Source: Fibrobacterota bacterium
Lineage (GTDB): Bacteria > Fibrobacterota > Fibrobacteria > UBA11236
Reading direction: 5' to 3'
NCBI GenBank assembly: GCA_947466585.1
Contig: CANIEU010000009.1
Span: 14,923-78,922, forward strand
Length of the DNA: 64,000 nt
Below, piece by piece: positions 4,335 through 61,149 of this stretch (positions are counted from its first letter, which is position 1; each line of letters opens with the position of its first letter). Below the pieces are notes generated by a model. That model ran no database searches. It saw only the letters and a program-made list of their open reading frames with translations, and was not told where the DNA came from. Made by a program: the position numbers and the translations under genes.

Positions 4335-6035
4335 CTAGTTTCCCGCCTCGGCGCGGATCTGCAATAATTCCTTCATGACGTGGAACAATTCGGTTCCGTT
4401 TGTTTTGGTTGTACCAAAGGCGTCATGGAGATCGACGTAGAGGGCGTAGAGTTTTCGGTACGTTGCATGGGCTGCCGGGTCCGGCTGGTAAACCGTGTCC
4501 CGGAGTCCGCACAAGGCGGCCTGCGCCGCCGCCGTGTCGGCGAAACCACCTGCGGAGACCCCTGCCGCCACTGCACCGAAGGCAGCCGCGCCGAGTGCGC
4601 AGGTTTGAGCGCTGCGAGCGACCTTCATGGGGCGGCCGGTGATGTCGGCGTAGGTTTGTATGAGCAAGGCGTTTTTGTCGGCGAGGCCGCCGCAGTTGAT
4701 AACTTCGCGCACCGGTACGCCGTATTCTTCGATGCGCTCGATGATGCGCAAGGCTCCGTAAGCGGTGGCTTCGATCAGTGCGCGATAGATCTCGTGGGCC
4801 TTTGTATGCAGGGTCTGACCCAGCAGCAGGCCGGTGAGTCGTTGGTCGACAAGGATGGTACGGTTCCCGTTGTTCCAGTCGAGCGCGAGCAGGCCGCTGG
4901 CTCCCGGGGCGAGTTTCGCCGCTTCGCGTTCGAGCGCGGCGAATTTTTCGCCCGGCGTGGCACCGTACGACTCGGGCACATGGTTGTGCACGTACCAGAG
5001 GAAGATGTCGCCTACGGCGCTCTGTCCGGCTTCGATGCCGAAATACCCACCGAGTACGGATCCGTTCACGATGCCGCATACGCCGGGAATGTCTTCGAGC
5101 GGTCGGTCGGCGGGTGAGACCATGATATCGCAGGTGCTGGTGCCGAGGATTTTGACGAGGCTGCCTTCGCCGACTCCCGCACCCACGGCCCCCATATGTG
5201 CGTCGAAAGCGCCCACGGCTACGGCGGTGCCGGCACGCAATCCGGTTTTATGGGCCCACTCTTCCGAAAGCCCGCCGGCACGCACGTCGGAGGCGTGCGC
5301 CATATCATAGAGGCGGGCGCGCAAATCAGCCAGGGCCGGGTCGAGCGAGGCGAGGAAGGCGGTGTCTGGCAGTCCGCCCCAGGCGGGATTGAACATCGCT
5401 TTGTGTCCGGCGGCGCAGACGCTGCGCAGAAGTTTATCGGGCCGCGTTTCACCGGTGAGTACGGCGGGCAGAAAGTCGCACAGTTCGACCCAGGAATGAG
5501 CGGCGGCGAATACGGCAGGTGCGGTGTTTTTGCAATGCCAGATTTTGGCCCAGAACCATTCCGACGAATAGGTGCCGCCGCATTTGGCGAGGTACTGGGG
5601 CCGCTGCGCTTGCGCGGCGGCCGTGAGCGCCGCCGCTTCGGCATGCGAGGTGTGATCCTTCCAGAGCCAGCATTCTGCCGCGAGCAGGCCGCGGTATTCC
5701 GGGAGCAAGGCGAGCGGGGTGCCGTTGTGGTCGACAGGGAGAACCGTACTCCCGGTGGTGTCGACACCGATGCCGATCACTTCCGAGGGATCAAATGCCG
5801 GTTCCGCTTTGCGTGCTTCCGCAAGCACGCCGATCAGCAGCGCCTCAAGGCCGAGCAGATAATCACCGGGGTGTTGCCGTGCGATGTGCGGATCGGATGG
5901 GTCCGTCAGCACGCCGAGGTGACCGGAGGGATAGTCGAATACGGTGGTGGCGAGTTCGCGTCCGTTTGCGAGGTCGATGAGCAGGGCACGGCAGGAGTTG
6001 GTGCCGTAGTCGAGTCCGATGGCGTAACGAGACAA
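4335..6035 (-). CDS. araB: L-ribulokinase (FGGY carbohydrate kinase)
   Basis: N-terminus MSRYAIGLDYGTNSCRALLID is AraB-like, with FGGY N- and C-domains. It is adjacent to and co-oriented with araD. Confidence 0.8.
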   Translation of the reverse strand: MSRYAIGLDYGTNSCRALLIDLANGRELATTVFDYPSGHLGVLTDPSDPHIARQHPGDYLLGLEALLIGVLAEARKAEPAFDPSEVIGIGVDTTGSTVLPVDHNGTPLALLPEYRGLLAAECWLWKDHTSHAEAAALTAAAQAQRPQYLAKCGGTYSSEWFWAKIWHCKNTAPAVFAAAHSWVELCDFLPAVLTGETRPDKLLRSVCAAGHKAMFNPAWGGLPDTAFLASLDPALADLRARLYDMAHASDVRAGGLSEEWAHKTGLRAGTAVAVGAFDAHMGAVGAGVGEGSLVKILGTSTCDIMVSPADRPLEDIPGVCGIVNGSVLGGYFGIEAGQSAVGDIFLWYVHNHVPESYGATPGEKFAALEREAAKLAPGASGLLALDWNNGNRTILVDQRLTGLLLGQTLHTKAHEIYRALIEATAYGALRIIERIEEYGVPVREVINCGGLADKNALLIQTYADITGRPMKVARSAQTCALGAAAFGAVAAGVSAGGFADTAAAQAALCGLRDTVYQPDPAAHATYRKLYALYVDLHDAFGTTKTNGTELFHVMKELLQIRAEAGN

Positions 6036-11761: not shown

Positions 11762-12213
11762 AAAAATCCGCCAAAAAATCGATTAAGAAATCCGTCGCAG
11801 TGGCCCATGTCGCGGGCGCAGGTTCCTCCGAGACCTACGAGGGGCGCCAGTCCCATATCCCCGGGATGAAGATGCCCGAGATCGAGACCTGGGAGTTTCT
11901 GTACCCCGGAAGCGCGACCACGCTGGAAGTGAGCGTTCCCGAGTTCACCTGCATCTGTCCCAAAACCGGTTTGCCCGATTTCGCAACCTTGGTCATAGCT
12001 TACGTGCCGAATAAACTTTGCCTCGAGCTCAAGAGTTTCAAGGAATACATCAATTCCTTCCGCGAGATGGGCATCTTCCACGAGCACGTGGTGAACCGCG
12101 TGCTGGCCGACTGCGTGAAGGCCTGCAAGCCGCGTGAAATGGAAGTCCGCGGCGTATTCAACGCTCGCGGCGGCATTCAGACGACTGCGTCAGCCGCCTT
12201 CCGTTCCCGTTAA
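11758..12213 (+). CDS. queF: NADPH-dependent 7-cyano-7-deazaguanine (preQ0) reductase, type I
   Basis: QueF motif ELKSFKEY and catalytic Cys in TCICPKTGLPDF. ATGA overlap with the hisS stop. Confidence 0.85.
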   Translation: MKKSAKKSIKKSVAVAHVAGAGSSETYEGRQSHIPGMKMPEIETWEFLYPGSATTLEVSVPEFTCICPKTGLPDFATLVIAYVPNKLCLELKSFKEYINSFREMGIFHEHVVNRVLADCVKACKPREMEVRGVFNARGGIQTTASAAFRSR

Positions 12214-30229: not shown

Positions 30230-31021
30230 ATGCGCATAGACGTCATCACGCTTTTCCCTGAAATGTTCGAGGCACTCAGCGCCAGCATTCCGGGGCGCGC
30301 CATGACGGCGGGGGCGCTGGAATTACACACGCATCAACTGCGGAACCACGCCATTAACAAGCACAACCAGGTCGACGACGCCCCCTACGGTGGCGAAGCG
30401 GGCATGGTGCTGCGGCCCGAACCGTTGCGCGACGCGCTGCAAGCCCTGCTGGCAAACGTTTCCGAACCCGATACGCTCCCGGGCGCTGCCCGGGAAAAGC
30501 CCCGCGTGATTCTGATGAGCGCGCAGGGGAGACTGCTCGATCAACAACGCGCCGCCGAAATCGCTGCGATGGAGCGCGTGGTTCTCGTCTGCGGACATTA
30601 CAAGGGTGTGGATCAGCGCTTCGTCGACACCTACGTCGACGAGCAAATCTGCGTCGGTGAATACGTGCTCTCGGGCGGAGAATTGCCCGCCATGGTGTTG
30701 ATCGATGCCGTGGCGCGCCTGTTGCCCGGCGTGATCGGCGATATCGAATCCGCCGACACCGATTCGTTTGCGCGCCCGGGTCGACTGGGTTGGCCGGTGT
30801 ATACGCGCCCCGCCCACTTCGAAGGAAAAAGCGCTCCCGAAGTTTTGCTTTCGGGGCATCACGCCCTGATCGAAACCTGGCGGACGCTCGAAAGTTTGCG
30901 GCTTACCCGCGAGAACCGACCCGACTTGTTGGAGCGTTTTCCGGTAACCCAAGCCGAGCAAAACCTGATGGATCCGCCCCGGAAGAAGCGTAAATCCCGC
31001 CGTCCGGCCACTGGAGAATAA
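30230..31021 (+). CDS. trmD: tRNA (guanine37-N1)-methyltransferase TrmD, basic C-terminal tail
   Basis: MRIDVITLFPEMF, DDAPYGGEAGMV and SGG..PAMVLIDA are present. The extra DPPRKKRKSRRPATGE tail is unusual. Confidence 0.9.
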   Translation: MRIDVITLFPEMFEALSASIPGRAMTAGALELHTHQLRNHAINKHNQVDDAPYGGEAGMVLRPEPLRDALQALLANVSEPDTLPGAAREKPRVILMSAQGRLLDQQRAAEIAAMERVVLVCGHYKGVDQRFVDTYVDEQICVGEYVLSGGELPAMVLIDAVARLLPGVIGDIESADTDSFARPGRLGWPVYTRPAHFEGKSAPEVLLSGHHALIETWRTLESLRLTRENRPDLLERFPVTQAEQNLMDPPRKKRKSRRPATGE

Positions 31022-31174
31022 CGCTTTTTTAGTTAATTAGTCGATTTTAGCTAGAAGTGCCGAGATCTAGTCCCAATCTCCTGAGCAAGGTAAAATCGAT
31101 TATTTGATTCGTTAAATCGGTAAATAAGCTTTAAAAAAGCCATATCCCCATAATATTTCGATACTATAGGGATA
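31022..31174 (+). promoter_or_regulatory. AT-rich regulatory region upstream of the carH-like gene; candidate operator
   Basis: Strongly AT-rich in a GC-rich genome. Contains direct repeats aaatcgattat.../aaatcggtaaat and an inverted repeat ctaga-N11-tctag. Confidence 0.45.
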
Positions 31175-32236
31175 ATGATTGAAACCGAAACGGACTTCCT
31201 TACCACCTCGCAGGCCGCTCTTTTACTCCAAGTTCACGAATCCTCTGTGAAGCGGTGGAGCAACTCGGGCGAACTGAAACTCGAAAAAACCTCCGGCGGT
31301 CACCGCCGTATTCGTTTCGAGGCGCTTCTCGATTTCGCCCGGGCCAAGGATCCGGGAGGAGATCTCTTGTTCTTCGCCCCGCACGAAGAGGAAGTCGCAC
31401 GCGCGGCGCTCGATGCCCGCGACCGCAATCAGTTCGACGGGGTGGGCGAACTGATCCTGCGCTTTTGCGACACGGAACCTCCGCGTTGGCTCGCTCATCT
31501 GATCCGCTACCTGGAGGGACCGTGCGGCATTCCCCTCACGCGCATCTTCGACGCCGGCATCGGCGGGGCGCTGGCCGATGTCGGCACCCAATGGCAAAAC
31601 GGGTCGCGCACGATCGCGCTCGAACACCGCTTCACTCAAAAGATCCTCGACGCCCTGCATGCCATTCTCACCCATCTCGAAGATGTGGACGACGCCGAAG
31701 AATCGGCGGAGCAAGCCTTGCGTGCGGTGCATGCCCTGGATCCCAAAAACGCAGTAGCATCGGATCGAGGAACCGTGGAAGGGCGCAAGCGCCCCCATGC
31801 GGTGGTGGGTTGCTCCGAGGGCTGCCACCATGAGATCGGCGCCTTGATGGCGCGCATCCTGTTGCAACGCGCCGGCTGGAGCGTAACCTATCTCGGTGCC
31901 AACGTGCCGTTCGAAGAGATGGCCGGTATTCAGGAGCTGGAACGCGCGCAAGTGATGTGCGTTTCTTTCGTGTCGCCGCTGGGTGCTGGGGATGTGCGCC
32001 GCTGCCTCAAAGTGCTGAACGCCTTGCAACAGCCCAATGCGCCCTATCGGCTCGTCACCGGAGGCCTGTCGTACCTTGCGGGCACCGAAGACCAGTATGA
32101 AACGCGCATCCCCATCAAGTTCGTGGAATCCATGGAAGGCTTTGAGCGGTGGTTCCGCACACAATTTGCCAAGGAGTTGGCGCGAGCCGCCAATTTCCGC
32201 AATGCAGTGGCCGGGGTCGCTGGGGTACCCCGATGA
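31175..32236 (+). CDS. CarH/LitR-like light-responsive regulator (MerR HTH + B12-binding domain)
   Basis: N-terminal MerR HTH (LTTSQAALLLQVHESSVKRWSNSGELK). C-terminal cobalamin-binding Rossmann with HAVVGCSEGCHHEIGALMARILLQRAGWSVTYLG, a H-x-x-G motif resembling the CarH E-x-H-x-x-G. Confidence 0.75.
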   Translation: MIETETDFLTTSQAALLLQVHESSVKRWSNSGELKLEKTSGGHRRIRFEALLDFARAKDPGGDLLFFAPHEEEVARAALDARDRNQFDGVGELILRFCDTEPPRWLAHLIRYLEGPCGIPLTRIFDAGIGGALADVGTQWQNGSRTIALEHRFTQKILDALHAILTHLEDVDDAEESAEQALRAVHALDPKNAVASDRGTVEGRKRPHAVVGCSEGCHHEIGALMARILLQRAGWSVTYLGANVPFEEMAGIQELERAQVMCVSFVSPLGAGDVRRCLKVLNALQQPNAPYRLVTGGLSYLAGTEDQYETRIPIKFVESMEGFERWFRTQFAKELARAANFRNAVAGVAGVPR

Positions 32237-34026
32237 AGGCCGCGATGAATGATGAGATGAATCGTAACAGGAAATGTGACATGCCTTCCAAGATGTCCAT
32301 TGAGGACAATCAATCGAGCCTGCCCGCATGGTTGCGCGCGCAATCCGATACCTTGTCCACCGAAACCTCGATGGAATATCTAGCGCGGCACAGTCACTCC
32401 TTCCGCTATGCCGCGCGCTTTTTACCCCCGCCGTTCGACACGCATGTCGCCGATGTGTACGCCTTTTGCCGATTCACCGACGATCTGGTCGACGGGTCCA
32501 CGCTGCCTGTTCCCGAGTTGCGCGCGCGCCTCTCCGACTGGCGGCGCTTGGCGCAACAAGCGCATAGAGGAGTGCCCACGGGCTTCGCTCTGCTCGACCG
32601 CCCCCTGATCGACATGGGGCGGCGCGGCATCCCCTTTGATTACGCCAGCGAGTTGATCGCTGGTGTGGCCATGGATTTGGAGCCGCGCCGCTACGCCACA
32701 CTCGCAGAACTCGATCTTTACAGTTACCGCGTGGCCTCAGTGGTAGGCCTGTGGCTCACCCGGCTCGTCGGAGTGAACGATCCGCAGGTACTGAAGCGTG
32801 CCGCCGATCTGGGTCACGCCATGCAGGTGACCAATATCCTCCGGGATGTGGGGGAGGACTGGGCCGTGGGTCGTTTGTATCTGCCGCTCGATGTGCTGGC
32901 CCGTCATGGAGTTCGCGAGGAAGACTTGGCAGAGTCCATGGCTTCCGCATCCGTCGATTCCCTTCCTCTGGGCTGGCAGGGTGCGATGGAAGAACTGATG
33001 TCCCTCGCCGATGCCCGCTACTGGAGTGCCTTCGGTGCGATTCCCGCCTTGCCCCGGTTTTTCCGCGTTCCCGTCGCGGTGTCGGGTCTTGTGTATCGCG
33101 ACATCCACACCGCCATCCGCCGCAACCGGTATGACAACCTGCGCTGCCGGGCACACACCTCGCGCACTCGTAAACTGTGGCTGGGCCTGAAGGCCCGCAT
33201 GCAAGTGGGCCTTTCAGGTATCGGCATCGGAGTCGAACGAGAGCAGGTGACTTCGCATTCCCTCAAGGACGCGCCGGAAAGTGCGGCAGCGCGGGGGTTC
33301 AGCCTGCGGAAGGCCGGCCTGCGCATCGTGCTACCGCTGTTCCTGTTGTTGTTGCTGTTTCTCGCGGGTGCCGCCGCAGGTTCGGCGCAGCCTCAAACTC
33401 CGCCCGCGCTCGAGTCGAGCGCAGAAGCGCGGGCGCGCCGGGAGTTGACTCGCATCGAGACCGAAATGCGGGGGCAACCGGAGAACCTCGATCTGCAGCT
33501 GCAACGCCTGCGTATTTTGCATCCCCTCAGCGTTCAGGATGCGGCGCTGCTGCCCGTGTCGCGGTCGGCGCGCGATCAGGCCGAACGCACGGTACGTGAA
33601 AATCCGGGAACGGCGCTGCAATCCAAGCAGCGTGGGGCAGAGCCGCTCAACCTGCTGCTGGCCTACGCAGGCGCGCTCGACGTGGTGGAAGCGCGCCATG
33701 CCTTTTGGCCGCGGGCCCGCCTCGAACCCTTGGAGCGCGGATTGCCGCGACTCGATTCGGCGGTGCAGCGCGATCCCGACAACGCCGAGATCCGTTATTT
33801 AAGACTCACCAGCAGCTATTACCTGCCGTTTTTTCTGGGGCGCAAATGGAGCGTGCGCGAAGATTTTAAGGCGTTGGCGGAATTGTTGCCGCGCGCGCGC
33901 GACGCCTACCCGGCGGAGTGGTATGCCGCCATCACCGATTTCGTACTGGAGAAGGGCGATCTCGGCGAGCGCGAGAGAAGCCGGTTGCAACGCGCGCGGC
34001 GCGAAGCGTTCGCGCGGAACCCGTGA
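32233..34026 (+). CDS. crtB: Phytoene synthase fused to ~250-aa C-terminal TM-anchored domain of unknown function
   Basis: N-terminal ~330 aa carry squalene/phytoene synthase motifs (YAFCRFTDDLVD, MQVTNILRDVGED). A hydrophobic helix IVLPLFLLLLLFLAGAAAG and a charged alpha-helical domain follow in the same frame. ATGA overlap with the regulator. Confidence 0.8.
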   Translation: MKAAMNDEMNRNRKCDMPSKMSIEDNQSSLPAWLRAQSDTLSTETSMEYLARHSHSFRYAARFLPPPFDTHVADVYAFCRFTDDLVDGSTLPVPELRARLSDWRRLAQQAHRGVPTGFALLDRPLIDMGRRGIPFDYASELIAGVAMDLEPRRYATLAELDLYSYRVASVVGLWLTRLVGVNDPQVLKRAADLGHAMQVTNILRDVGEDWAVGRLYLPLDVLARHGVREEDLAESMASASVDSLPLGWQGAMEELMSLADARYWSAFGAIPALPRFFRVPVAVSGLVYRDIHTAIRRNRYDNLRCRAHTSRTRKLWLGLKARMQVGLSGIGIGVEREQVTSHSLKDAPESAAARGFSLRKAGLRIVLPLFLLLLLFLAGAAAGSAQPQTPPALESSAEARARRELTRIETEMRGQPENLDLQLQRLRILHPLSVQDAALLPVSRSARDQAERTVRENPGTALQSKQRGAEPLNLLLAYAGALDVVEARHAFWPRARLEPLERGLPRLDSAVQRDPDNAEIRYLRLTSSYYLPFFLGRKWSVREDFKALAELLPRARDAYPAEWYAAITDFVLEKGDLGERERSRLQRARREAFARNP

Positions 34027-34814
34027 TGCGTATCGATATGTCTCAATCCCTCCCTGTTTTTTCGAACCTGCTTGCGCGCGGCTTCGAAATCGTATTTGAC
34101 CTTGTGAAGAGTGTCGGCCTCGCCGGGGTGCATTGGAGCATCCCCGCTGGCCTGGCGCAGCGCCTGCCGGCCGATCGACCCGTGGTGCTGTTCGGAAACC
34201 ACTCCAGCAATTGGGATGGTTTTCTGTACCGTGACCTGCAAAAGAAACTGCGCCCCGGCATGCCGATCTACAGCCTGATGCTCGAGCGTGAATTGCGGCG
34301 TCTGCCGCTCTTTCGTGCCCTGGGCGGCATCGGTATTGATTCGACCTCTCCCGGCTCCGTGGCTCGTGCCTTGCGGTCTGCAAGAGCGCTGCGAGGGCCC
34401 TCTTTTACTTCCGCCGGCTTTTTCTTCAGCGTGTTTCCGCAAGGCTCCACCTATCCCGCCGGCAAACGCCCGCTGGGATTTCAGGAAGGCCTCCGGCACT
34501 TTGCAAAAGCGCTGGGCCCGGTGACCTTGTTGCCGGTGGCGTTGCAATTCGAACTGCTGGGCAGCGTGCGTCCGCATGCCTTTGTTTCCGTAGGCGAGCC
34601 GATCGCGGTTCCAGAATCCGCGGGGAAGGTCATTGACCTCGGCTCCATTCCCTCGCTCGATGTGCTCGAAGCACAGGTGACGGCTCTGTTGGATGGGCTG
34701 AACGCCGATCTCTCGGCACGCGGCGAAGCCGCGGTTTCAATACCTGGCGAAGCCACGGTTTCAATGCCGGGCGAAGCGGCGGTATCCAACGTAGTAGGGG
34801 AGAGTCCCGTATGA
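34026..34814 (+). CDS. Lysophospholipid/1-acyl-sn-glycerol-3-phosphate acyltransferase-family protein (likely carotenoid glycoside acyltransferase, CruD-like)
   Basis: H-x4-D acyltransferase motif (NHSSNWDGF) and FPQGST. The C-terminal 27-bp x3 tandem repeat encodes GEAAVSIPGEATVSMPGEAAVS. ATG overlaps the crtB stop. Confidence 0.65.
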   Translation: MRIDMSQSLPVFSNLLARGFEIVFDLVKSVGLAGVHWSIPAGLAQRLPADRPVVLFGNHSSNWDGFLYRDLQKKLRPGMPIYSLMLERELRRLPLFRALGGIGIDSTSPGSVARALRSARALRGPSFTSAGFFFSVFPQGSTYPAGKRPLGFQEGLRHFAKALGPVTLLPVALQFELLGSVRPHAFVSVGEPIAVPESAGKVIDLGSIPSLDVLEAQVTALLDGLNADLSARGEAAVSIPGEATVSMPGEAAVSNVVGESPV

Positions 34815-36022
34815 TCGCTGCCCTGTTGCATGCCGGCTTCTTCGCCGCAAACCTCGAGTCGGTAGCGGCCACCGCTTCGTTGTGCATCCTTGCGGGCATG
34901 GTTTGCATGGTCGTATTCAACACCCTGACTGCGCCACGCGCAGGGGGCCAAAAGTCGCCAACGGTGTTCCCGAAGGTGAGTTTGCTGGTGCCCGCGCGCA
35001 ACGAGGCGCACAACGTGCCCATTCTCGCCGCGCATTTCGAAAAGCTGGAGTATCCGAATTTGGAGATCATTCTCCTCGACGATGCTTCCGACGATGGCAC
35101 GGGGGCGGCGCTCGGAGATCTGGTAAACCTCCCGGCATTGCGCGGGCGCGCCCGCTCGTTGCGGGGCGCAGAATTGCCCACCGGTTGGCTCGGGAAAAAC
35201 TGGGCCTGTCATCAACTCGCTCAAACTTCCTCGGGAGATGTGCTGATCTTTTGCGATGCCGATGCGCGCCCCGGGCCGCAAGCGGTGACCCGCACCGTGG
35301 CGTTGTTGGAACACTATGGCGTCGGCTGCGCCACCTTGATGCCGCGCCAGGTGCTCGGGTCGTGGGCCGAGCGCGCGGTGATTCCGGTACTGCTGCACAT
35401 CTCGCTGTTCTGCTTCCTTCCCATCGCCCTCGTGCCGCGCCTGCGCTGGAAGCGCCTCGGGGTGGGGAACGGGCAATGGCTTTCGTTCCGTCGCTCCGCA
35501 TACGCCGCGGTGGGCGGCCATGCGGGCGTGCGCGACAAGGTGGTGGAAGATATCGCCCTTGCGCAGCGTGCCCAGACCCATGGAAACGGTCTGGTCGTGG
35601 GGTTGGCGACCGATACGCTTGCCGTGCGCATGTACCGAAACTTCCGCGAAGTGTGGGATGGTTTCGGCAAAAACGTGTTCGTGCTCACAGGCGGTACGCT
35701 GTGGCAGACGCCGTTCTTCGGCTTGTTTTTTGCGCTGATCCACATTCTTCCCTGGCTGCTCTTCCTCCTGCATCCGCAGTTGTGGGGGCTGCCGCTCGCT
35801 TTGCTTTTGGTTTGTCGCGTGCTCACCGCCCGTGCCTTGGGCGAACCGCTGGGGGCCATTGCCGGACAAGTCGCCGGGTCCATCCTGGTTCCCCTCATCG
35901 TCGCGCGCTCGCTGTTCGATTTCCGTTTTCATCGCCTGCAGTGGAAGGGCCGCATTCTGAATGCCGGTCCGCCTCCGGTGCAAAGTTTGGCCCAGAATCG
36001 GGCCTCCAAGGAGTCTTTGTGA
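34811..36022 (+). CDS. Family-2 glycosyltransferase (likely carotenoid glycosyltransferase, CruC/CrtX-like role)
   Basis: GT2 motifs (SLLVPARNEAHNV, ILLDDASDDGT, FCDADAR) and C-terminal TM helices. It sits inside the carotenoid operon. Confidence 0.7.
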   Translation: MIAALLHAGFFAANLESVAATASLCILAGMVCMVVFNTLTAPRAGGQKSPTVFPKVSLLVPARNEAHNVPILAAHFEKLEYPNLEIILLDDASDDGTGAALGDLVNLPALRGRARSLRGAELPTGWLGKNWACHQLAQTSSGDVLIFCDADARPGPQAVTRTVALLEHYGVGCATLMPRQVLGSWAERAVIPVLLHISLFCFLPIALVPRLRWKRLGVGNGQWLSFRRSAYAAVGGHAGVRDKVVEDIALAQRAQTHGNGLVVGLATDTLAVRMYRNFREVWDGFGKNVFVLTGGTLWQTPFFGLFFALIHILPWLLFLLHPQLWGLPLALLLVCRVLTARALGEPLGAIAGQVAGSILVPLIVARSLFDFRFHRLQWKGRILNAGPPPVQSLAQNRASKESL

Positions 36023-37551
36023 ATTCCGTGACCGAACAAAAAAAAGGGGCAGTGCCCCGAACCGCCATCGTGATCGGCTCCGGCTTCGGCGGGCTGTCCG
36101 CCGCTATTCGCCTGCAAAGCCGGGGTATTCAGGTCACACTGGTGGAGCAACGGGAAAAGGTCGGCGGCCGCGCCTACCAAATGAAAGAAGGCGGGTACAC
36201 CTTCGACATGGGCCCGTCCCTCATCACCGCGCCGCAGATCCTCGACAAGGTGTTTGCCTGTGCGGGCACATCGTTGTCGGCAGCCTTGCCGCTGTTGCCG
36301 CTCGATCCGTTTTACCGCGTGTTCTTTCACGATCACAGCCGCTTCGAGTACAACGGATCCCCGGAAGGCATGAAGGCGCAGATGCGCCAGTACAATGCCG
36401 CCGATGCGGACCGCTACGACGATTTCATGAAGGCCGTGGCGCCCATTTATGCGGAAGTGATCGAGAAGGGATTGGGCAGTCGTTCCTTCGGGAATCCCTG
36501 GACGATGATTCGTTTTATCCCCACGGTGATTCGCCTCGGGGCGTGGCGTACTGCGACGCAATTCGCCAACAAGTACTTCAAGGACTGGCGTCACCGCTTC
36601 GTGTTCAGCTTCCATTCGCTGTACATCGGCGGCAACCCGTTTCACTGCCCGGCGATTTACCAGATGATTCCGTTTTTGGAGCGGGCACAGGGTGTCTGGT
36701 ACACGCCGGGCGGCATGTATTCGTTGACGCGGGCACTGGAAAAGGCCTTTATCGGACTCGGTGGTGTGGTGCGCACGTCCACCCCGGTAACGCGCATCCG
36801 GGTTGAAGGAGGCAGAGCGACCGGTGTAGAAATTCCGGAGGGATTCCTTCCCGCCGATCTGGTGGTGAGCAACGCCGACGTGGGATTCACCTACGCGAAA
36901 CTGATCGCACCGGAGCATCGCCGCAAGTGGACTGACGCGAAGGTGAACCGTCAGGAATTCACGATGAGTTGCTTCCTGATCTTCTTGGGCGTGAAGAAGC
37001 GCTATCCGGAATTGGCCCATCATACCCTGATTCTGGCGGAGCGCTATAAGGATCTGTTGAAAGACATTTTCAAGAACAAGATTCTGCCTGGTGATTTCAG
37101 CATGTACGTGCACGCGCCCACGCGCACCGACGACACCATGGCGCCGCCAGGGTGCGAGAGTCTGATGGTGCTGGTTCCGGTGGCGAATCAGGCGTCGGGT
37201 ATCGACTGGAAGACTCAGGCGCAGCCCTATGCGGACAAGATCCTGGACTTTTTGGAACAGTGGGGTTTGACTGATTTACGGGAGAACCTGGAAGTCTTTA
37301 AGCTGTTCACGCCCGATGATTTCGAATCGGAGCTTTCGGCGTGGCGGGGCAATGCCTTCGGCATCGAGCCGCGTTTGTCGCAGACGGGTTACTTCCGCCC
37401 GCACAACCGGAGCGAGGATCTGGCGGGGTTGTACTTTACCGGGGCGGGCACGCATCCCGGCGCGGGTGTTCCCGGCGTGATGCTTTCTGCCGAGGCCGCA
37501 GAGCGGTGTATCGTCGAGGATTGGCCCGCGTTAACGAAGAAAGGTTTATGA
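36019..37551 (+). CDS. crtI: Phytoene desaturase
   Basis: FAD-binding IVIGSGFGGLSAAIRL and a CrtI-family C-terminus (GLYFTGAGTHPGAGVPGV). GTG start overlaps the upstream stop. Confidence 0.9.
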   Translation: MNSVTEQKKGAVPRTAIVIGSGFGGLSAAIRLQSRGIQVTLVEQREKVGGRAYQMKEGGYTFDMGPSLITAPQILDKVFACAGTSLSAALPLLPLDPFYRVFFHDHSRFEYNGSPEGMKAQMRQYNAADADRYDDFMKAVAPIYAEVIEKGLGSRSFGNPWTMIRFIPTVIRLGAWRTATQFANKYFKDWRHRFVFSFHSLYIGGNPFHCPAIYQMIPFLERAQGVWYTPGGMYSLTRALEKAFIGLGGVVRTSTPVTRIRVEGGRATGVEIPEGFLPADLVVSNADVGFTYAKLIAPEHRRKWTDAKVNRQEFTMSCFLIFLGVKKRYPELAHHTLILAERYKDLLKDIFKNKILPGDFSMYVHAPTRTDDTMAPPGCESLMVLVPVANQASGIDWKTQAQPYADKILDFLEQWGLTDLRENLEVFKLFTPDDFESELSAWRGNAFGIEPRLSQTGYFRPHNRSEDLAGLYFTGAGTHPGAGVPGVMLSAEAAERCIVEDWPALTKKGL

Positions 37552-37883
37552 GGGTTGTCGTGGAAGGAGATCGGACAACCAGTTCGTGCTCGGAGCGGCT
37601 CCGCTCCGGACGCTATAAACAGGCCCTGCGGGCCAGTTTGTCGCTAGGCTATCCGGTGCTCGCCGCTCTTCCGCGCGAACCGGTGCGCCCGCTCTCCACG
37701 ATGACAGTTTGCAAGCTTTCCCAGATCAAAACACCTTGGCACGACCGCCGGGCGGAGGCGGAAAAACTTCTCGAAGCGGAGCGAGACGCGGGGTCCCCTC
37801 TGGGGACGTCGAGCGAGCATCGAAAGTTTTTCCGTCGACCATCCCGGCGCATGCACGAGCCCTCGTTTGGAAATGGTCGATGA
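37548..37883 (+). CDS. Possible small hypothetical protein between crtI and the cyclase (uncertain)
   Basis: 111-codon ORF whose ATG overlaps the crtI TGA (tATGAg) and whose TGA overlaps the cyclase ATG (cgATGa). GC3 (~65%) is lower than in neighbours, so it may be a non-coding spacer. Confidence 0.3.
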   Translation: MRVVVEGDRTTSSCSERLRSGRYKQALRASLSLGYPVLAALPREPVRPLSTMTVCKLSQIKTPWHDRRAEAEKLLEAERDAGSPLGTSSEHRKFFRRPSRRMHEPSFGNGR

Positions 37884-38602
37884 GTTTCTGGAATTCTCAC
37901 CTCACATACCTCACGATCGACCTGCTCACGATCGCGTTTCCGCTCGCGTACAGCTTTACCGCACGGTCGGGCTTCAGCAAGCACCTGGGTCGCGTATGCG
38001 CGGCCATCGCATTGGTCGCCGTCCCCATGCTCGTCTGGGACGCCGTGTTTACGGCCCACGGAGTCTGGGGATTCAATCGAGATTACATCCTCGGCTTCTC
38101 TCCATTCGGGTTACCGGTGGAGGAAATCCTCTTCTTCCTCTGCATTCCCTTCGCCTGCCTGTTCATCTACGACACCGTTAAAAATTTCCCCCGCCTCGCA
38201 CTGCCCGAACGCCCCGTCCGCATTCTTGCCGGCCTGCTCGCCGTCGTGTTGATCGCGTTCGCTACGGCGAACACACACCGCGCCTACACGCTGCTCGCCT
38301 GCCTCGGCGCCGCGCCTTTCCTGGTCGCCCTCGCCGCTGGTCACCTCCGCTTTCGCCTCGGCCACATCGCCAGTGCCTACATGTTCCACCTGATTCCGTT
38401 CTTCCTCGTCAACGGAATCTTGACCGGCATGTTTACCGCGCAACCCGTGGTGTGGTACAACAACGCCGAAAACCTCGGCATCCGTTTGGGCAGCATTCCC
38501 ATTGAAGATGCCGCATACTCCATGATCCTACTGTTCGGTGCGATCTTTCTACTGGAACGACCGACCTCGCAGAAAACCGAAAAACCCGGAAGCCCACTGT
38601 GA
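37880..38602 (+). CDS. Lycopene cyclase domain protein (CrtYcd-type, fused heterodimeric cyclase)
   Basis: ~240-aa polytopic membrane protein with the duplicated cyclase-domain pattern (W..HL.YL..DL...FP and a second half with PVEE.LFF). Position between crtI and crtZ supports the call. Confidence 0.6.
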   Translation: MSFWNSHLTYLTIDLLTIAFPLAYSFTARSGFSKHLGRVCAAIALVAVPMLVWDAVFTAHGVWGFNRDYILGFSPFGLPVEEILFFLCIPFACLFIYDTVKNFPRLALPERPVRILAGLLAVVLIAFATANTHRAYTLLACLGAAPFLVALAAGHLRFRLGHIASAYMFHLIPFFLVNGILTGMFTAQPVVWYNNAENLGIRLGSIPIEDAAYSMILLFGAIFLLERPTSQKTEKPGSPL

Positions 38603-39039
38603 TTCTCGACCTGCTGATTTTCTTCTCCGTCTTTTTTCTGATGGAAGCTGTCGCCTGGGCCGCGCACAAATACGTGATGCACGGGTTTTTGTGGTCGCTG
38701 CATGAATCGCACCATCTGCCGCGCACGGGGGCGTTCGAGAAGAACGACTGGTTCGGCGCGTTCTTCAGCTTGGTGGCCATGGCGCTGTTCGCGGCGGGGT
38801 ATTTCATCGACGTCCGCTTTACCGCGGCGGGGTTGGGCATGACGGCGTACGGCTTCGCCTACCTGTTTCTGCACGACATTCTCAATCACAAACGTTTCGG
38901 AATTCACATCAAGCCGAACAATCGTTATCTGCGGTCCGTGCTGCAGTCCCATCGCATCCACCATGCGACCCAGGGCAAGGACGGCTGCGTGTCGTTCGGG
39001 TTTCTGGTACCGATGCGAGCCAAAAGGCGCATTTTTTAA
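38599..39039 (+). CDS. crtZ: Beta-carotene 3-hydroxylase
   Basis: His boxes AAHKYVMHG, HESHH, HDILNHKRF and HRIHHAT..GKDGCVSFGF are collinear with Pantoea CrtZ. GTG start overlaps the upstream stop. Confidence 0.85.
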   Translation: MILDLLIFFSVFFLMEAVAWAAHKYVMHGFLWSLHESHHLPRTGAFEKNDWFGAFFSLVAMALFAAGYFIDVRFTAAGLGMTAYGFAYLFLHDILNHKRFGIHIKPNNRYLRSVLQSHRIHHATQGKDGCVSFGFLVPMRAKRRIF

Positions 39040-39801: not shown

Positions 39802-41814
39802 GTGGCCACCTCCGAACTCATCCGTCTTACCGGCGTGGGGCCCAAGCGCCTCGCGGCGCTGCAAGCGGCGGGGATCCAGACCTTTCGCGACTTGGTGTAC
39901 CGGGTGCCGCGCCGCTACGTCGACCGCACGCGGCTGACGCCGATCGCCACGCTGAACGAGGGTGACGACGCCTTCTTCGTGGCCCGTATCGACTCGGTCA
40001 AAACCCCGCCGGGCCGTCTCAACGTCACCGTTTCGGATGAGACGGGCAGCTTCGAACTCGCCTTCTTCAACGCCGCGCAATTCCTGCGTCAAACGCTGCT
40101 CCCCGGCCGCCGCATCTCGGTGGCGGGCGTGGTCAAACGCTTCCGCACCTTGCAGATCGCGCACCCCGAGTGGGAGATTTTGCGGGAGGATCAAGACCCG
40201 CGCGGCGGCTTGCTGCCGTTGTACCCGCTCACCGAGGATTTGGCAGAGACCCGCGCCGAGCACAAGTTGCTGCAAAAGCTCGCCCTCGAAGCCCTCGACA
40301 CTTACGCATTCTCAGATCCGATTCCGTTGCCTGAGCGCACCTTCCTGGGCCTGCGTCCCGAGAAGGACGTCCTCAAAATCCTCCACGCGCCCGAGACCCT
40401 TGCCGATGTGGCCGCCGCGCTCGCCGAGTTGAAGACCCGCGAGCTGTGGCCGCTGTGCAGGGCCCGTGCCGAGGCCCGCCGCCTGCGTCGCACGCGCGGC
40501 AGGGCCTTTCCTTCTACTCCCACCGTTGAAGCGGCAGAGAAGGCCGTACGCGCGGCCTTGCCCTTCACGCTCACCGGCGGGCAGGAAGAGGTGCTTGCCC
40601 AGATTCACGCTGCAATGGGCGGAGGGGAGCAGGGACGAGGCCAGTTCTTCGGATTGCTGCACGGCGATGTGGGTTCGGGTAAAACGGCTGTGGCCTTGCT
40701 CTCTGCCGTGCGCGTGGTTGCGTCGGGATCACAAGTGGCCTTGCTCGCCCCAACCGAAATACTGGCGGTGCAGCATTACCGCAATCTGGAACCGTGGCTC
40801 CGCGCCGCCGGCATCGAGATCGCACTCCTCACGGGAGATACTGCGCCCGCGGACCGTCGCCACATCGAAGCGAAGCTGGCGGACGGAACCTTGCCGATCA
40901 TCGTGGGGACGCACGCCTTGCTCTCCAGCGGCACGGTGTTCAAAGATCTGCGTTATGTGCTGGTGGACGAGCAGCATCGCTTCGGCGTGGAGCAGCGCGC
41001 CCTGCTGACGCAGAAGGGCGTGGAGCCGCACGTGCTCTACCTCTCCGCCACGCCGATCCCGCGTACGTTGGCGCAGTCGCTGTACGGCGATCTCGAGGTA
41101 TTGACCCTGGCCGAAAAACCTGCGGGCCGCCTGCCGGTGAAAACGCGCATCGTGCCCGCCGCCAAGCAGGCGGAGCTGTTGCAGTTCCTCCGGGGCGAGA
41201 CGCTAACGAACAATAATCAGGTTTACTGGGTGGTGCCGCGCATCAGTTCGAGCGGCGAAGAAGAAGATGGTGTTGCCGGAATCGAGAGTGCAGTCAAACG
41301 CTTGAAAGCCGCCGCACCTAAAAACGAATGGAAGGTGGAGTCGGTTCACGGCCGGGTTCCCTCTGCCGATCGGGACCGCATCCTGTCCGCTTTTCGGCGG
41401 GGCGAAATCCACGCCCTGGTGGCGACCACGGTGATCGAGGTGGGCGTGGACGTGCCGGGCGCGAACCTGATGGTGGTGGACGGCGCGGATCGCTTCGGCA
41501 TGGCGCAGTTGCATCAGCTGCGCGGTCGCACGGGGCGCGGCGCGGCGCAGGCGTGGTGCTTTTTACTGGAGCCCTCGCCGCTGGGTTGGAACGAAGACAC
41601 TGAGGCCCGTCTGCGCGATTTCGCCGGTACCGAAGACGGGTTCGCGATTGCGGAGATGGACCTGAAGCGACGCGGTGCGGGCAGCCTCGACGGCAAGCAG
41701 CAAAGCGGGTTCGGCCTGTTGCGCTTTGCGGATATTCTGGAGGATGCGGATTTGATCCGCGAACTCGGCGCGCGCGCGGAGGCGTTCGCCGAGAGGGGCG
41801 TTGCCGGAACTTAA
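39802..41814 (+). CDS. recG: ATP-dependent DNA helicase RecG
   Basis: Wedge/OB N-domain, SF2 helicase motifs (GDVGSGKT, DEQHRFG, SATPIPRT), and a TRG motif region. GTG start. Confidence 0.9.
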   Translation: MATSELIRLTGVGPKRLAALQAAGIQTFRDLVYRVPRRYVDRTRLTPIATLNEGDDAFFVARIDSVKTPPGRLNVTVSDETGSFELAFFNAAQFLRQTLLPGRRISVAGVVKRFRTLQIAHPEWEILREDQDPRGGLLPLYPLTEDLAETRAEHKLLQKLALEALDTYAFSDPIPLPERTFLGLRPEKDVLKILHAPETLADVAAALAELKTRELWPLCRARAEARRLRRTRGRAFPSTPTVEAAEKAVRAALPFTLTGGQEEVLAQIHAAMGGGEQGRGQFFGLLHGDVGSGKTAVALLSAVRVVASGSQVALLAPTEILAVQHYRNLEPWLRAAGIEIALLTGDTAPADRRHIEAKLADGTLPIIVGTHALLSSGTVFKDLRYVLVDEQHRFGVEQRALLTQKGVEPHVLYLSATPIPRTLAQSLYGDLEVLTLAEKPAGRLPVKTRIVPAAKQAELLQFLRGETLTNNNQVYWVVPRISSSGEEEDGVAGIESAVKRLKAAAPKNEWKVESVHGRVPSADRDRILSAFRRGEIHALVATTVIEVGVDVPGANLMVVDGADRFGMAQLHQLRGRTGRGAAQAWCFLLEPSPLGWNEDTEARLRDFAGTEDGFAIAEMDLKRRGAGSLDGKQQSGFGLLRFADILEDADLIRELGARAEAFAERGVAGT

Positions 41815-48475: not shown

Positions 48476-51709
<3,234 letters not shown>

Positions 51710-53899: not shown

Positions 53900-55120
53900 C
53901 TACTTCGCGGCCTTCCTCCCCAGCTTCTGACCTTTCCAGGTGAAGCTACCGAAGGAACCGGCGACGGTGGCGGAGAGCACCAGCGGAATGTGCAGCGCCG
54001 CGGTGAAGGGGAAAAAGCGCAACAGCGGCATCAGTCCGAAAAGGCGAAACCCCGAGCGCATCACCCACAGATCGGCAAGGGTCTTCACCAAAAAGCCGAT
54101 CACGCCGAGCAGACCCAAACTGCCATCGCCAACGTGGAACAGACCGAGGGTCAAGAGCACCGCAATGGCGGCGTAAAAGGCAAATACCGCCAGCAGAAAC
54201 GCCAGCTGTGCCGGACGATAGTGGACGCACTTGCCTGCCCAGCGTTTGCGCTGCTCCCAAAAGTGACCCCAGGTTTCCGGAGGCGTGGTCTCCACGCGCG
54301 CTTCGGGAGCGGCGCAATAGCGGATGGCCCAGTTACCCGTGGCGTGAATTTCTTGCAACGTGAAGTCGTCGTCGCCGCTGACTACCGTGCCGTGGCGCGC
54401 AAAGGCCCCCGCTTCATCGAACGCCCGGCGGCGGTAGGCCAGGTTGTTGGCGTTGGCGATCACGGGAAACCCGAGACCCACCAGCGCCGCCGCACTGATC
54501 CCGTACGAGATAAACTCCAAGGCGCGCGTGCCGCCGGAAGGTGAATAGCCGGAGTCGGGTTCTAGGTAGGCCGTGAGCCCGATCACCATGCCGGTGTCGT
54601 CGTAGAACTCGGTACCGAGTGCGGTGAGCCAGCGTTTGCCCATGGTGCAGTCGGCATCGGTCACGGCGATCCACTCGCCGCGCGCTTGTTCCAGTCCGCG
54701 TAAAAGGGCGTGTTTCTTGGGGCTCATACCAGGCGGCAAGGCCTCGATGCGCAATGAATCCACCCGTCCGGGATAGCGTGCCGCATAATCGCTTAAAACC
54801 GCCGGAGTACCGTCCACGGAGCGGTCGTCCACCACCACGATTTGAAGACGATCTGCCGGCCATTCCTGTTGCAGCAAAGCGTCCAGGGTGCTGGGGAGGT
54901 TGGACTCTTCGTCGCGCGCGGCGATCAATACGGTGACCATAGGGCGCTGTTCCGCTAGATGCGGAGGGGTCTGATCAGGCCCATTTTGACCTTCTGGCCG
55001 GTTTTGATCATCCGTTCGCTTCCCATCCCGCAGATTCTCGAGCCTTTTCAGGCCGCGCACCAGCCAAAAATCGAGAATTGCGTACATCACGCAGGCCGTC
55101 AGAAAGATCGGAGTGAACAT
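53900..55120 (-). CDS. Family-2 glycosyltransferase, membrane-anchored
   Basis: VTVLIAARDEESNLPSTL, IVVVDDRSVDGT and TDADCT (GT2 DxD). N- and C-terminal TM helices. Confidence 0.7.
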   Translation of the reverse strand: MFTPIFLTACVMYAILDFWLVRGLKRLENLRDGKRTDDQNRPEGQNGPDQTPPHLAEQRPMVTVLIAARDEESNLPSTLDALLQQEWPADRLQIVVVDDRSVDGTPAVLSDYAARYPGRVDSLRIEALPPGMSPKKHALLRGLEQARGEWIAVTDADCTMGKRWLTALGTEFYDDTGMVIGLTAYLEPDSGYSPSGGTRALEFISYGISAAALVGLGFPVIANANNLAYRRRAFDEAGAFARHGTVVSGDDDFTLQEIHATGNWAIRYCAAPEARVETTPPETWGHFWEQRKRWAGKCVHYRPAQLAFLLAVFAFYAAIAVLLTLGLFHVGDGSLGLLGVIGFLVKTLADLWVMRSGFRLFGLMPLLRFFPFTAALHIPLVLSATVAGSFGSFTWKGQKLGRKAAK

Positions 55121-61075: not shown

Positions 61076-61149
61076 TGGTTGGGGTGCAAGGATTCGAACC
61101 TCAATAAGCAGAACCAGAAACTGCTGTCCTACCATTGGACGACACCCCA
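61076..61149 (-). tRNA. tRNA-Gln (anticodon CTG), CCA encoded
   Basis: Minus-strand sequence TGGGGTG-TC-GTCC-AATGGTA-GGAC-A-GCAGT-TTCTGGT-TCTGC-TTAT-TGAGG-TTCGAAT-CCTTG-CACCCCA-A-CCA. 7-bp acceptor stem. Resembles E. coli tRNA-Gln (UGGGGUA...GGUUCGAAUCC). Confidence 0.75.

Follow-up and report, generated by a model that had tools for sequence, protein, structure and literature searches.

A candidate B12-dependent photoreceptor of the CtMerR type at the head of a Fibrobacterota carotenoid operon, preceded by helically phased AAnCGnTT motifs

Among gene switches that respond to green light, only those built on B12-based photoreceptors are, to our knowledge, well understood, and one of them, CarH, is in use in optogenetics and light-responsive materials. 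The described protein closest to the one reported here is CtMerR of Chloracidobacterium thermophilum (WP_157850694; Protein Data Bank (PDB) entries 8JBS for the dark and 8JBT for the light state; Yu et al. 2024, FEBS J, PMC11796333), the isolated cobalamin-binding domain of which binds adenosylcobalamin (AdoCbl), is photolysed by green light and passes from tetramer to monomer. The DNA-binding domain was removed for those experiments, and DNA binding and target genes lay outside the study. In the same work, a light-sensing signature of four elements (GxxW, EH, GxxH and GxxxP) separated responsive from non-responsive domains experimentally, and the role of GxxxP in CtMerR was described (PMC11796333). 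Here, a 64-kb stretch of DNA from a Fibrobacterota bacterium (contig CANIEU010000009.1; the whole stretch is called the window below) was analysed around a regulator gene (31175-32236, + strand; 353 amino acids) that heads a carotenoid operon and encodes a CtMerR-like protein, in which a BldC-type winged helix is fused to a CarH-type cobalamin-binding domain. Judged from sequence, the regulator is likely to be an AdoCbl-dependent photoreceptor-repressor of this operon, of the CtMerR type, acting through AAnCGnTT sites upstream of its own gene.

The CarH/LitR proteins (Thermus thermophilus, Myxococcus xanthus and Bacillus megaterium; PDB 5C8A, 5C8D-5C8F) share with the window protein the cobalamin-binding domain fold, the Wx9EH motif, the His ligand and, by prediction, the control of carotenoid genes. 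An earlier note on this DNA had described a B12-based, CarH-like photoreceptor heading a carotenoid operon, and this description is supported by the signature residues, the PF02310 match and the operon order reported below. Its assignment of the protein to the CarH/LitR type holds for the cobalamin-binding domain and not for the DNA-binding domain, which is of the BldC/excisionase type.

Domain composition and light-sensing signature of the regulator

The cobalamin-binding domain named in the earlier note was recovered with the Pfam model proposed there as a check: PF02310 matches residues 208-298 of the regulator at 39.9 bits, above the cut-off, and the peptide quoted in that note (HAVVGCSEGCHHEIGA) begins at residue 208. 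The MerR helix-turn-helix (HTH) claimed alongside it (PF13411) was not found, in that PF13411 gave no match and PF00376 (MerR) scored 17.7 bits, below its gathering score of 28.2. Residues 8-57 (31196-31345, + strand) instead form a winged-helix DNA-binding domain of the HTH_17/excisionase type (PF12728, 40.8 bits; TIGR01764 excisionase-type domain, 34.3 bits, above the NCBIfam cut-off), with the recognition helix HESSVKRW and the wing GGHRR. Two further NCBIfam models were matched below their cut-offs, namely the CarH equivalog NF052513 (34.1 bits against 400, over residues 207-266 only) and the BldC model NF033787 (33.4 bits against 77).

The best PDB match of the single regulator sequence was CtMerR (8JBS/8JBT; E-value 1.6e-16, 63.6 bits), and a family profile matched 8JBS over its full length (profile positions 5-277; 7.8e-57). 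When the N-terminal domain was searched alone, CtMerR came first (8.4e-11), followed by BldC (6AMK/6AMA; 2e-5). T. thermophilus CarH (TtCarH) matched the family profile through its cobalamin-binding domain only (1e-16), and the CarH DNA-binding domain gave no significant sequence alignment to the regulator in either the N-terminal-domain or the family-profile search. An AlphaFold2 model of the regulator, with the family alignment as input, had a mean predicted local distance difference test score (pLDDT) of 92.7 and a predicted template modelling score (pTM) of 0.90. Compared with the PDB by Foldseek, this model retrieved full-length TtCarH and the CtMerR cobalamin-binding domain as top matches, at a target-normalised TM-score of 0.79. 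The linker between the helical bundle and the Rossmann fold (31685-31795, approximately residues 171-207), where pLDDT is about 60, is longer in the window protein than in nearly all homologues, and the C-terminal tail (32180-32233, residues 336-353) is also extended, giving a total of 353 residues against approximately 305-345 in homologues.

Apart from CtMerR, the closest solved DNA-binding domain is that of BldC from Streptomyces (6AMA, 6AMK; PMC5859096). The base-contacting Arg30 and the minor-groove wing residue His46 of BldC align with R27 and H43 of the regulator, both invariant among 25 family members; across the same alignment, E22, K26, R27, W28 and G41-R45 are invariant. BldC, however, is a 68-residue stand-alone domain that forms head-to-tail oligomers through the winged helix itself, whereas the winged helix of the window protein is tethered to a sensor region of approximately 290 residues with a cobalamin-binding domain predicted to dissociate in light, and its candidate sites lie 21 bp apart. 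The regulator carries a DNA-binding domain of the BldC type, yet is not a member of the BldC family.

A canonical CarH/LitR protein would place a MerR-type domain on three to four tandem 11-bp repeats (nnnnTnnACAn) overlapping the -35 element. Such an identity would agree with the TtCarH match of the cobalamin-binding domain, with full-length TtCarH as the top Foldseek match and with the Joint Genome Institute name carried by some homologues ('MerR family, light-induced transcriptional regulator'), but it can hardly be reconciled with the N-terminal domain of the protein or with the DNA upstream. The equivalog and MerR model scores are those given above, the CarH DNA-binding domain cannot be aligned, and the recognition helix (HESSVKRWSNSG) contains KRWSN instead of RxWERRY, the CarH motif (PMC9304148). 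In addition, a regular-expression search of both strands of the control region (31022-31174) found neither TnnACA nor TGTnnA, and the conserved sites in this region are 21 and 41 bp apart, not 11. The regulator lacks three features that define CarH/LitR: the RxWERRY MerR-type domain, the match to the equivalog model and the operator of tandem 11-bp TnnACA repeats.

All four published signature elements are present in the regulator (GTQW at residues 137-140, E150-H151, GCHH at 216-219 and GANVP at 241-245). The adenosyl-side light-sensing motif GxxW-x9-EH (G137-x-x-W140-x9-E150-H151; 31583-31627, + strand) was located by regular expression in the helical bundle, where its Wx9EH part (residues 140-151) reads WQNGSRTIALEH. 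GxxH (G216-C-H-H219-E-I-G222; 31820-31840, + strand) contains His219, the predicted lower axial cobalt ligand, and GxxxP (G241-A-N-V-P245; 31895-31909, + strand) is the signature element at the oligomer interface. By HMMER alignment, W140/E150/H151 fall on W156/E166/H167 and G216/H219 on G201/H204 of CtMerR; W140/E150/H151/H219 align with W131/E141/H142/H177 of TtCarH. Among the 25 family members, which extend down to 26% identity, G137, E150, H219, G241 and P245 are invariant and W140 and H151 nearly so. The His ligand and Trp-x9-EH, on the presence of which the earlier note had made its assignment depend, are thus both there and conserved.

The rest of the classic B12 motif can be followed as HxxG-x41-S264-x-V, with G296-G297 after 29 residues (classically 22-27). 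The ligand motif itself, which had been likened to (E)-x-H-x-x-G, agrees with that description in its His ligand and departs from it in the acidic residue: [DE]xHxxG was not found in the regulator sequence by regular expression, and the motif reads C-x-H-x-x-G, with Cys217 (in Cys217-His218-His219) in place of Asp/Glu. Across the family this position is held by C, G, E, N or D. Trp140 is followed by Gln141, where TtCarH has His132, a residue of its bis-His light state. Directly before the ligand His219 lies Cys213-x-x-x-Cys217 (31811-31825); Cys213 is widespread in the family, CtMerR included, and Cys217 occurs in nearly all members of the Fibrobacteria clade and not in others. A redox role for the two cysteines is conceivable.

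Many B12-binding domains are not photoreceptors, and the protein might therefore bind cobalamin without sensing light, whether as a reporter of B12 availability or redox state, as a CarA-like, B12-independent regulator or as an antirepressor like AerR/PpaA. The CxxxC formed by Cys213 and Cys217 beside the His ligand, the departure from D/ExHxxG and the absence of the bis-His residue, replaced by Gln141, would be in keeping with such a role. We nevertheless regard it as unlikely, because the conserved light-sensing signature is complete and has discriminating value established by experiment (PMC11796333), because CtMerR, with Arg at the bis-His position, retains its photoactivity (PMC11796333), and because the conserved partner genes are photoprotective carotenoid genes. 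M. xanthus CarA and AerR/PpaA (7TE2) belong, like the window protein, to the B12-binding-domain family and act in light or pigment regulation, but CarA is B12-independent and without the Trp of Wx9EH, which the window protein has, and the AerR/PpaA proteins are antirepressors with no DNA-binding domain, AerR being a weak match to the family profile (8e-6). The photocobilins SasPcob and AbDPcob (8J2W, 8J2X, 8J2Y) have a related cobalamin-binding domain with the same signature (family profile E-values 3e-22 to 3e-16); unlike the regulator, they lack a DNA-binding domain, and their further domains are a globin domain that binds biliverdin and, in AbDPcob, a GGDEF output domain.

CtMerR and the window protein have in common an HTH_17-type winged helix with ESSVKRW...GGHRR, a helical bundle and a Rossmann cobalamin domain. 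Their four signature elements align residue by residue, and neither has His after the Trp. The two sequences are only distantly related, however, the window protein falling in a clade centred on Fibrobacteria; CtMerR has Asp at the position of Cys217 and is shorter (327 against 353 residues), the linker and the C-terminal tail being longer in the window protein. The operator proposed below for the window regulator is without a published counterpart in CtMerR. Since it agrees with the group on every criterion that can be computed, the regulator is placed, as a predicted photoreceptor, with the CtMerR-like HTH_17-cobalamin-domain proteins (the SignatureFinder light-responsive set).

A phased AAnCGnTT motif upstream of the regulator gene

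The 153-bp interval between trmD and the regulator gene (31022-31174, + strand) is the candidate operator and promoter region. Its G+C fraction (0.33-0.34, against approximately 0.6 in the flanks) bears out the strong AT-richness reported in the earlier note, and the direct repeats mentioned there were located at 31093 (AAATCGATTAT) and 31114 (AAATCGGTAAAT), 21 bp apart. A repeat finder likewise returned a 9-nt direct repeat with 21-bp spacing (GTAAAATCG/GTTAAATCG). For comparison, a scan of one genome per species gave 61 regulator loci, mainly in metagenome-assembled genomes (MAGs) labelled Fibrobacteria/Fibrobacterota, Rhodothermales/Bacteroidota and Myxococcota; individual loci are referred to by numbers preceded by L. 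The 200-bp upstream regions of 16 Fibrobacteria-type genes were subjected to Gibbs sampling and then to iterative scans, which yielded a 16-nt matrix with the consensus AAATAATCGTTTTATG and the quasi-palindromic core AAnCGnTT.

In the window, the matrix identified candidate operator sites A (GTAAAATCGATTATTT; 31090-31105, CpG at 31097-31098, 16.3 bits) and B (GTTAAATCGGTAAATA; 31111-31126, CpG at 31118-31119, 11.1 bits), which coincide with the first and second of the direct repeats. A degenerate site C (AATATTTCGATACTAT; 31152-31167, CpG at 31159-31160) follows B at a spacing of 41 bp, 16 nt short of the ATG. A distal copy of the motif, D (AATTAGTCGATTTTAG; 31035-31050, 15.9 bits), lies inverted relative to A; no strand is assigned to any of the four sites. 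Site D forms an 18-nt inverted repeat (83% complementary) with 31088-31105. Relatives have no conserved copy of D at that position, so that this site is confined to the window, whereas the closest relatives (L004-L007) share with the window the site C sequence TTTCGATAyT and its distance of 16 nt from the ATG. Three sites of at least 11 bits in 31022-31174 compare with 0.035 expected from composition-matched shuffles, of which 0 of 2000 reached three, although this test is slightly circular in that the window supplied 3 of the 42 training sites. Only five sites of at least 11 bits were found in the whole window, three of them in this interval. Isolated motif matches at 11773-11788, 49893-49908 and 54785-54796 were considered as regulon members and rejected, as they lie inside GC-rich open reading frames (ORFs) and occur at about the background rate.

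The arrangement of sites is conserved. In the 12 Fibrobacteria loci linked to carotenoid (crt) genes, site A stands out as conserved, its CpG preceding the ATG by 78 nt; A and B are separated by 21 bp in 10 of 11 loci and by 22 bp in one, and B and C by 40-41 bp in the crt-linked loci, where C lies 16 nt before the ATG. A MAFFT alignment of 13 upstream regions showed the same three CpG-centred blocks, the CpG columns of site B being invariant. The array is absent from three Fibrobacteria-type loci without adjacent crt genes (L014, L018 and L019).

An independent test was provided by 39 Rhodothermales/Bacteroidota/Myxococcota loci, none of which had been used to build the matrix. With a threshold of at least 10 bits, the 170 bp preceding the regulator contained 42 sites in total, where shuffles gave 1.8 +/- 1.4; the enrichment over the rest of these loci is 52-fold, and 26 of the 39 loci had at least one such site. 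The inter-site distances form clusters at 21-23, 39-42, 61-65, 83-85, 101-104 and 123-125 bp, and 41 of the 58 deviate by no more than 2 bp from a multiple of 20.8 bp (24% expected). The counterpart here of the multi-repeat, CarH-like operator suggested in the earlier note is a candidate operator in the form of a phased multi-site array, not of tandem 11-bp TnnACA repeats: the CarH/LitR operator consists of the latter, whereas the operator proposed here has AAnCGnTT at steps of approximately 21 bp and extends over 60-125 bp. In an acidobacterial locus (L065), the motif takes the form of tandem 9-bp AAATCGCTn direct repeats (AAACGCTC-AAATCGTTC and TAATCGCT-AAAATCGCT), which lie upstream of the regulator homologue in two clusters (4869-4893 and 4980-5004), 111 bp apart, reminiscent of the 9-bp head-to-tail repeats bound by BldC.

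Two other sequence features of the control region were set aside. The inverted repeat given in the earlier note as ctaga-N11-tctag has a spacer of N10 (31051-31070); inverted repeats with 5-bp arms are at chance level here (4, against 2.4 +/- 2.0 in shuffles), and inspection by eye of related loci revealed no apparent conservation; this repeat is probably without function and was rejected as an operator. An imperfect palindrome with 14-nt arms (31143-31174; TATCCCCATAATAT / ATACTATAGGGATA) has the CpG of site C at its centre and extends up to the start codon; a T run follows on the minus strand, and the element was flagged as terminator-like. By inspection it is not conserved in L004-L007 and is therefore treated as local.

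The AAnCGnTT motif is probably the operator of the regulator. It accompanies the regulator gene across phyla, and since HESSVKRW in the recognition helix and GGHRR in the wing hardly vary, the same DNA specificity would be expected across phyla. BldC protomers read an AT tract together with a C:G pair, in 9-bp direct repeats (PMC5859096), and by analogy this reading mode matches the make-up of the motif. The array might alternatively consist of promoter elements of a particular sigma factor or of sites for another regulator, the photoreceptor acting elsewhere or through protein partners. The A-B distance of 21 bp is close to that between -35 and -10 elements, C overlaps a -10-like hexamer, and AT-rich intergenic DNA is generally rich in A/T motifs. 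Against this stand the two to four copies of the motif per locus at variable multiples of approximately 21 bp, unlike promoter elements, its excess far above composition-matched shuffles, and its association with the regulator in four phyla, whose promoters should differ and in which the recognition helix is nearly invariant with an AT-tract-plus-CG site fitting the BldC reading mode. An origin of the array other than as the regulator's operator thus appears improbable.

For the promoter itself, -35/-10 pairs inside sites A and B were examined by eye and rejected on account of misfitting spacers (8-15 bp or more than 18 bp), as was a reading of AAAC...CGT as a promoter for an extracytoplasmic function (ECF) sigma factor, which would need a 20-nt spacer against the usual 16-17 nt. 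Most crt-linked loci have a TAnnnT hexamer ending 7-10 nt before the ATG, which in the window is TACTAT (31162-31167) and overlaps site C. A leaderless or near-leaderless transcript, the -10 element of which would fall within site C, is suggested by this with low to moderate confidence. Equally, the GG conserved at -6 to -4 could serve in ribosome binding on a longer leader.

The position of the start also bears on the sign of regulation. With a transcription start at the ATG or close to it, the positions of A and B would be approximately -78 and -57, as is typical of activator sites, and MerR-superfamily proteins are often activators, so that the regulator might use the same sites as a light-switched activator, either MerR-like or of class I. 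This is decidedly unlikely, as site C covers the -10-like element and start region, and all characterised AdoCbl/CarH-type regulators, together with the tetramer-to-monomer behaviour of CtMerR, fit repression in the dark. An oligomer able to bridge phased sites would moreover exist only in the dark, and constitutive activation of a photoprotective pathway in the dark makes little physiological sense.

The carotenoid operon and its distribution

The window's neighbouring genes were compared with the regulator loci by tblastn. In 12 of 16 Fibrobacteria-type loci, crtB...crtI follow immediately after the regulator; of the remaining four loci, one has hardly any downstream sequence. Among 40 other loci, 19 have crtB or crtI in the vicinity of the regulator. 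One Bacteroidota locus shows an apparent gap between regulator and crtB, which proved to be a Caroten_synth domain at the N terminus of a fused crtB. Linkage to crt genes extends to relatives in Acidobacteriota: in a Pyrinomonadaceae locus, the regulator and a NUDIX-crtB-crtI-hydrolase-polyprenyl synthase gene group are arranged divergently. The link between regulator and carotenoid genes therefore covers at least four phyla (Fibrobacteria, Rhodothermales/Bacteroidota, Myxococcota and Acidobacteriota). A collection of 5.8 billion proteins yielded 116 homologues, nearly all of them combining HTH_17 and B12-binding domains. The window is identical to a contig of MAG GCA_947475575.1. The loci nearest to it come from Fibrobacteria MAGs, with identities of 58-62% in the regulator and approximately 70% in trmD.

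Several Rhodothermales/Bacteroidota MAGs carry two to three regulator paralogues (L025/L027, L032/L035, L033/L041/L045, L048/L055, L031/L058 and L052/L056). In some of these MAGs a single copy adjoins crt genes, and the remaining copies, found at other places, are often preceded by motif sites, which hints at a wider light regulon. Three contigs labelled 'uncultured Bifidobacterium sp.' or 'Bifidobacteriales' (L007, L015 and L063) carry trmD-regulator-crt loci typical of Fibrobacteria MAGs; the labels are probably binning or naming errors.

In the window, rimM and trmD precede the regulator on the same strand. The stop codon of the regulator and the start of crtB overlap by 4 bp (ATGA at 32233-32236). 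The crtB product (32233-34026, + strand; 597 amino acids; gene call from L001) has a phytoene synthase domain (PF00494, 212 bits) and a C-terminal extension of approximately 250 residues, and both NCBIfam models applied to it, HpnD and CrtB, scored below cut-off. The C-terminal part (33220-34026) consists of a hydrophobic helix (LRIVLPLFLLLLLFLAGAAAG) followed by approximately 200 residues with no Pfam match; in many loci of Fibrobacteria and Rhodothermales, tblastn likewise detected it downstream of crtB, in some cases as a match of its own. The genes between 34026 and 39039, whose start codons were examined, lie on the same strand with overlaps or small gaps and were identified by Pfam/NCBIfam matches: an acyltransferase (34026-34814), a CruG-like family-2 glycosyltransferase (34811-36022; CruG 102 bits, below cut-off), crtI (approximately 36019-37551), a fused protein with a lycopene cyclase domain (approximately 37880-38602) and a CrtZ-like hydroxylase of the fatty-acid-hydroxylase family with His-rich motifs (38599-39039). 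The operon is followed by recG at 39802, and the sole Rfam match in the window is a tRNA gene at 61079-61149 (- strand). The gene set suggests a hydroxylated, glycosylated and acylated carotenoid, and makes a carotenoid glycoside ester, of the kind made by Salinibacter and Rhodothermus, the probable product of the operon in an uncultured Fibrobacteria lineage.

Proposed mechanism and implications

The mechanism is proposed by analogy with CarH (PMC9304148) and on the basis of the light-driven tetramer-to-monomer change of CtMerR. In the dark, the regulator would bind AdoCbl and form a tetramer, the DNA-binding domains of which, presumably one per site, would occupy the helically phased sites A and B, the weaker C and the distal D, all from the same side of the double helix. 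Such a one-sided, multi-site operator and a dark tetramer acting as repressor are features of CarH/LitR (PMC9304148) that are predicted here for the window protein. Binding in the dark would block transcription of the regulator gene, crtB, the acyltransferase and glycosyltransferase genes, crtI, the cyclase gene and the crtZ-like gene. Light from ultraviolet to green would cleave the Co-C bond, upon which the tetramer would fall apart, cooperative DNA binding would be lost and carotenoid synthesis would be switched on. Lying first in the operon, the regulator gene would be negatively autoregulated, and repression would be re-established on return to the dark.

Several points weigh against this mechanism. 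Repression through these sites would be an extrapolation from CarH, since the work on CtMerR left out DNA binding and the regulon. The quasi-palindromic core of the motif leaves the orientation of the sites and the number of domains per site ambiguous, site C is weak by matrix score, and site B is weaker than its counterparts in relatives. The loci compared are species representatives and not phylogenetically independent, so that P values for the enrichment are overstated, with effect sizes that are very large. A scan of 30900-32400 with the sigma-70 consensus gave no promoter, and an Rfam scan of the 64-kb window gave no cobalamin riboswitch. With Gln141 in place of the bis-His residue and Cys217 in place of Asp/Glu, the photochemistry after Co-C cleavage may also differ from that of CarH.

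More tentatively, and with less confidence than is attached to the photoreceptor-repressor itself, the locus may represent a second, mechanistically distinct mode of B12 photoregulation. BldC-type winged helices would here be mounted on a light-dissociable cobalamin tetramer and would read AAnCGnTT every two helical turns (approximately 21 bp) over 60-125 bp; the promoter DNA would be wrapped or looped, in place of the compact CarH operator of three to four 11-bp repeats, and the -10 element of a leaderless or near-leaderless mRNA would lie in the promoter-proximal site. The protein-operator pair would on this account be conserved in Fibrobacterota, Rhodothermales/Bacteroidota, Myxococcota and Acidobacteriota. 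A literature search on HTH_17-B12 regulators, their operators and links between BldC and CarH found only the CtMerR study (PMC11796333) and a mention of the architecture (PMC8717448), and no prior description was found of the conserved carotenoid linkage of the group, its autoregulatory position at the operon head or an operator in a 21-bp register.

CtMerR revealed in 2024 a second type of DNA-binding domain on a B12 sensor, and left its DNA target and regulon open. The locus in the window and its relatives supply a conserved candidate target, presumably autoregulated carotenoid operons, and an operator model, AAnCGnTT in a 21-bp register. If confirmed, the regulator and its sites would constitute an orthogonal light-controlled repressor-operator pair, and with it an orthogonal green-light switch for optogenetics. 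For the organisms themselves, the locus suggests light-controlled carotenoids in uncultured environmental Fibrobacteria, and a lifestyle with access to light, oxygen and B12.

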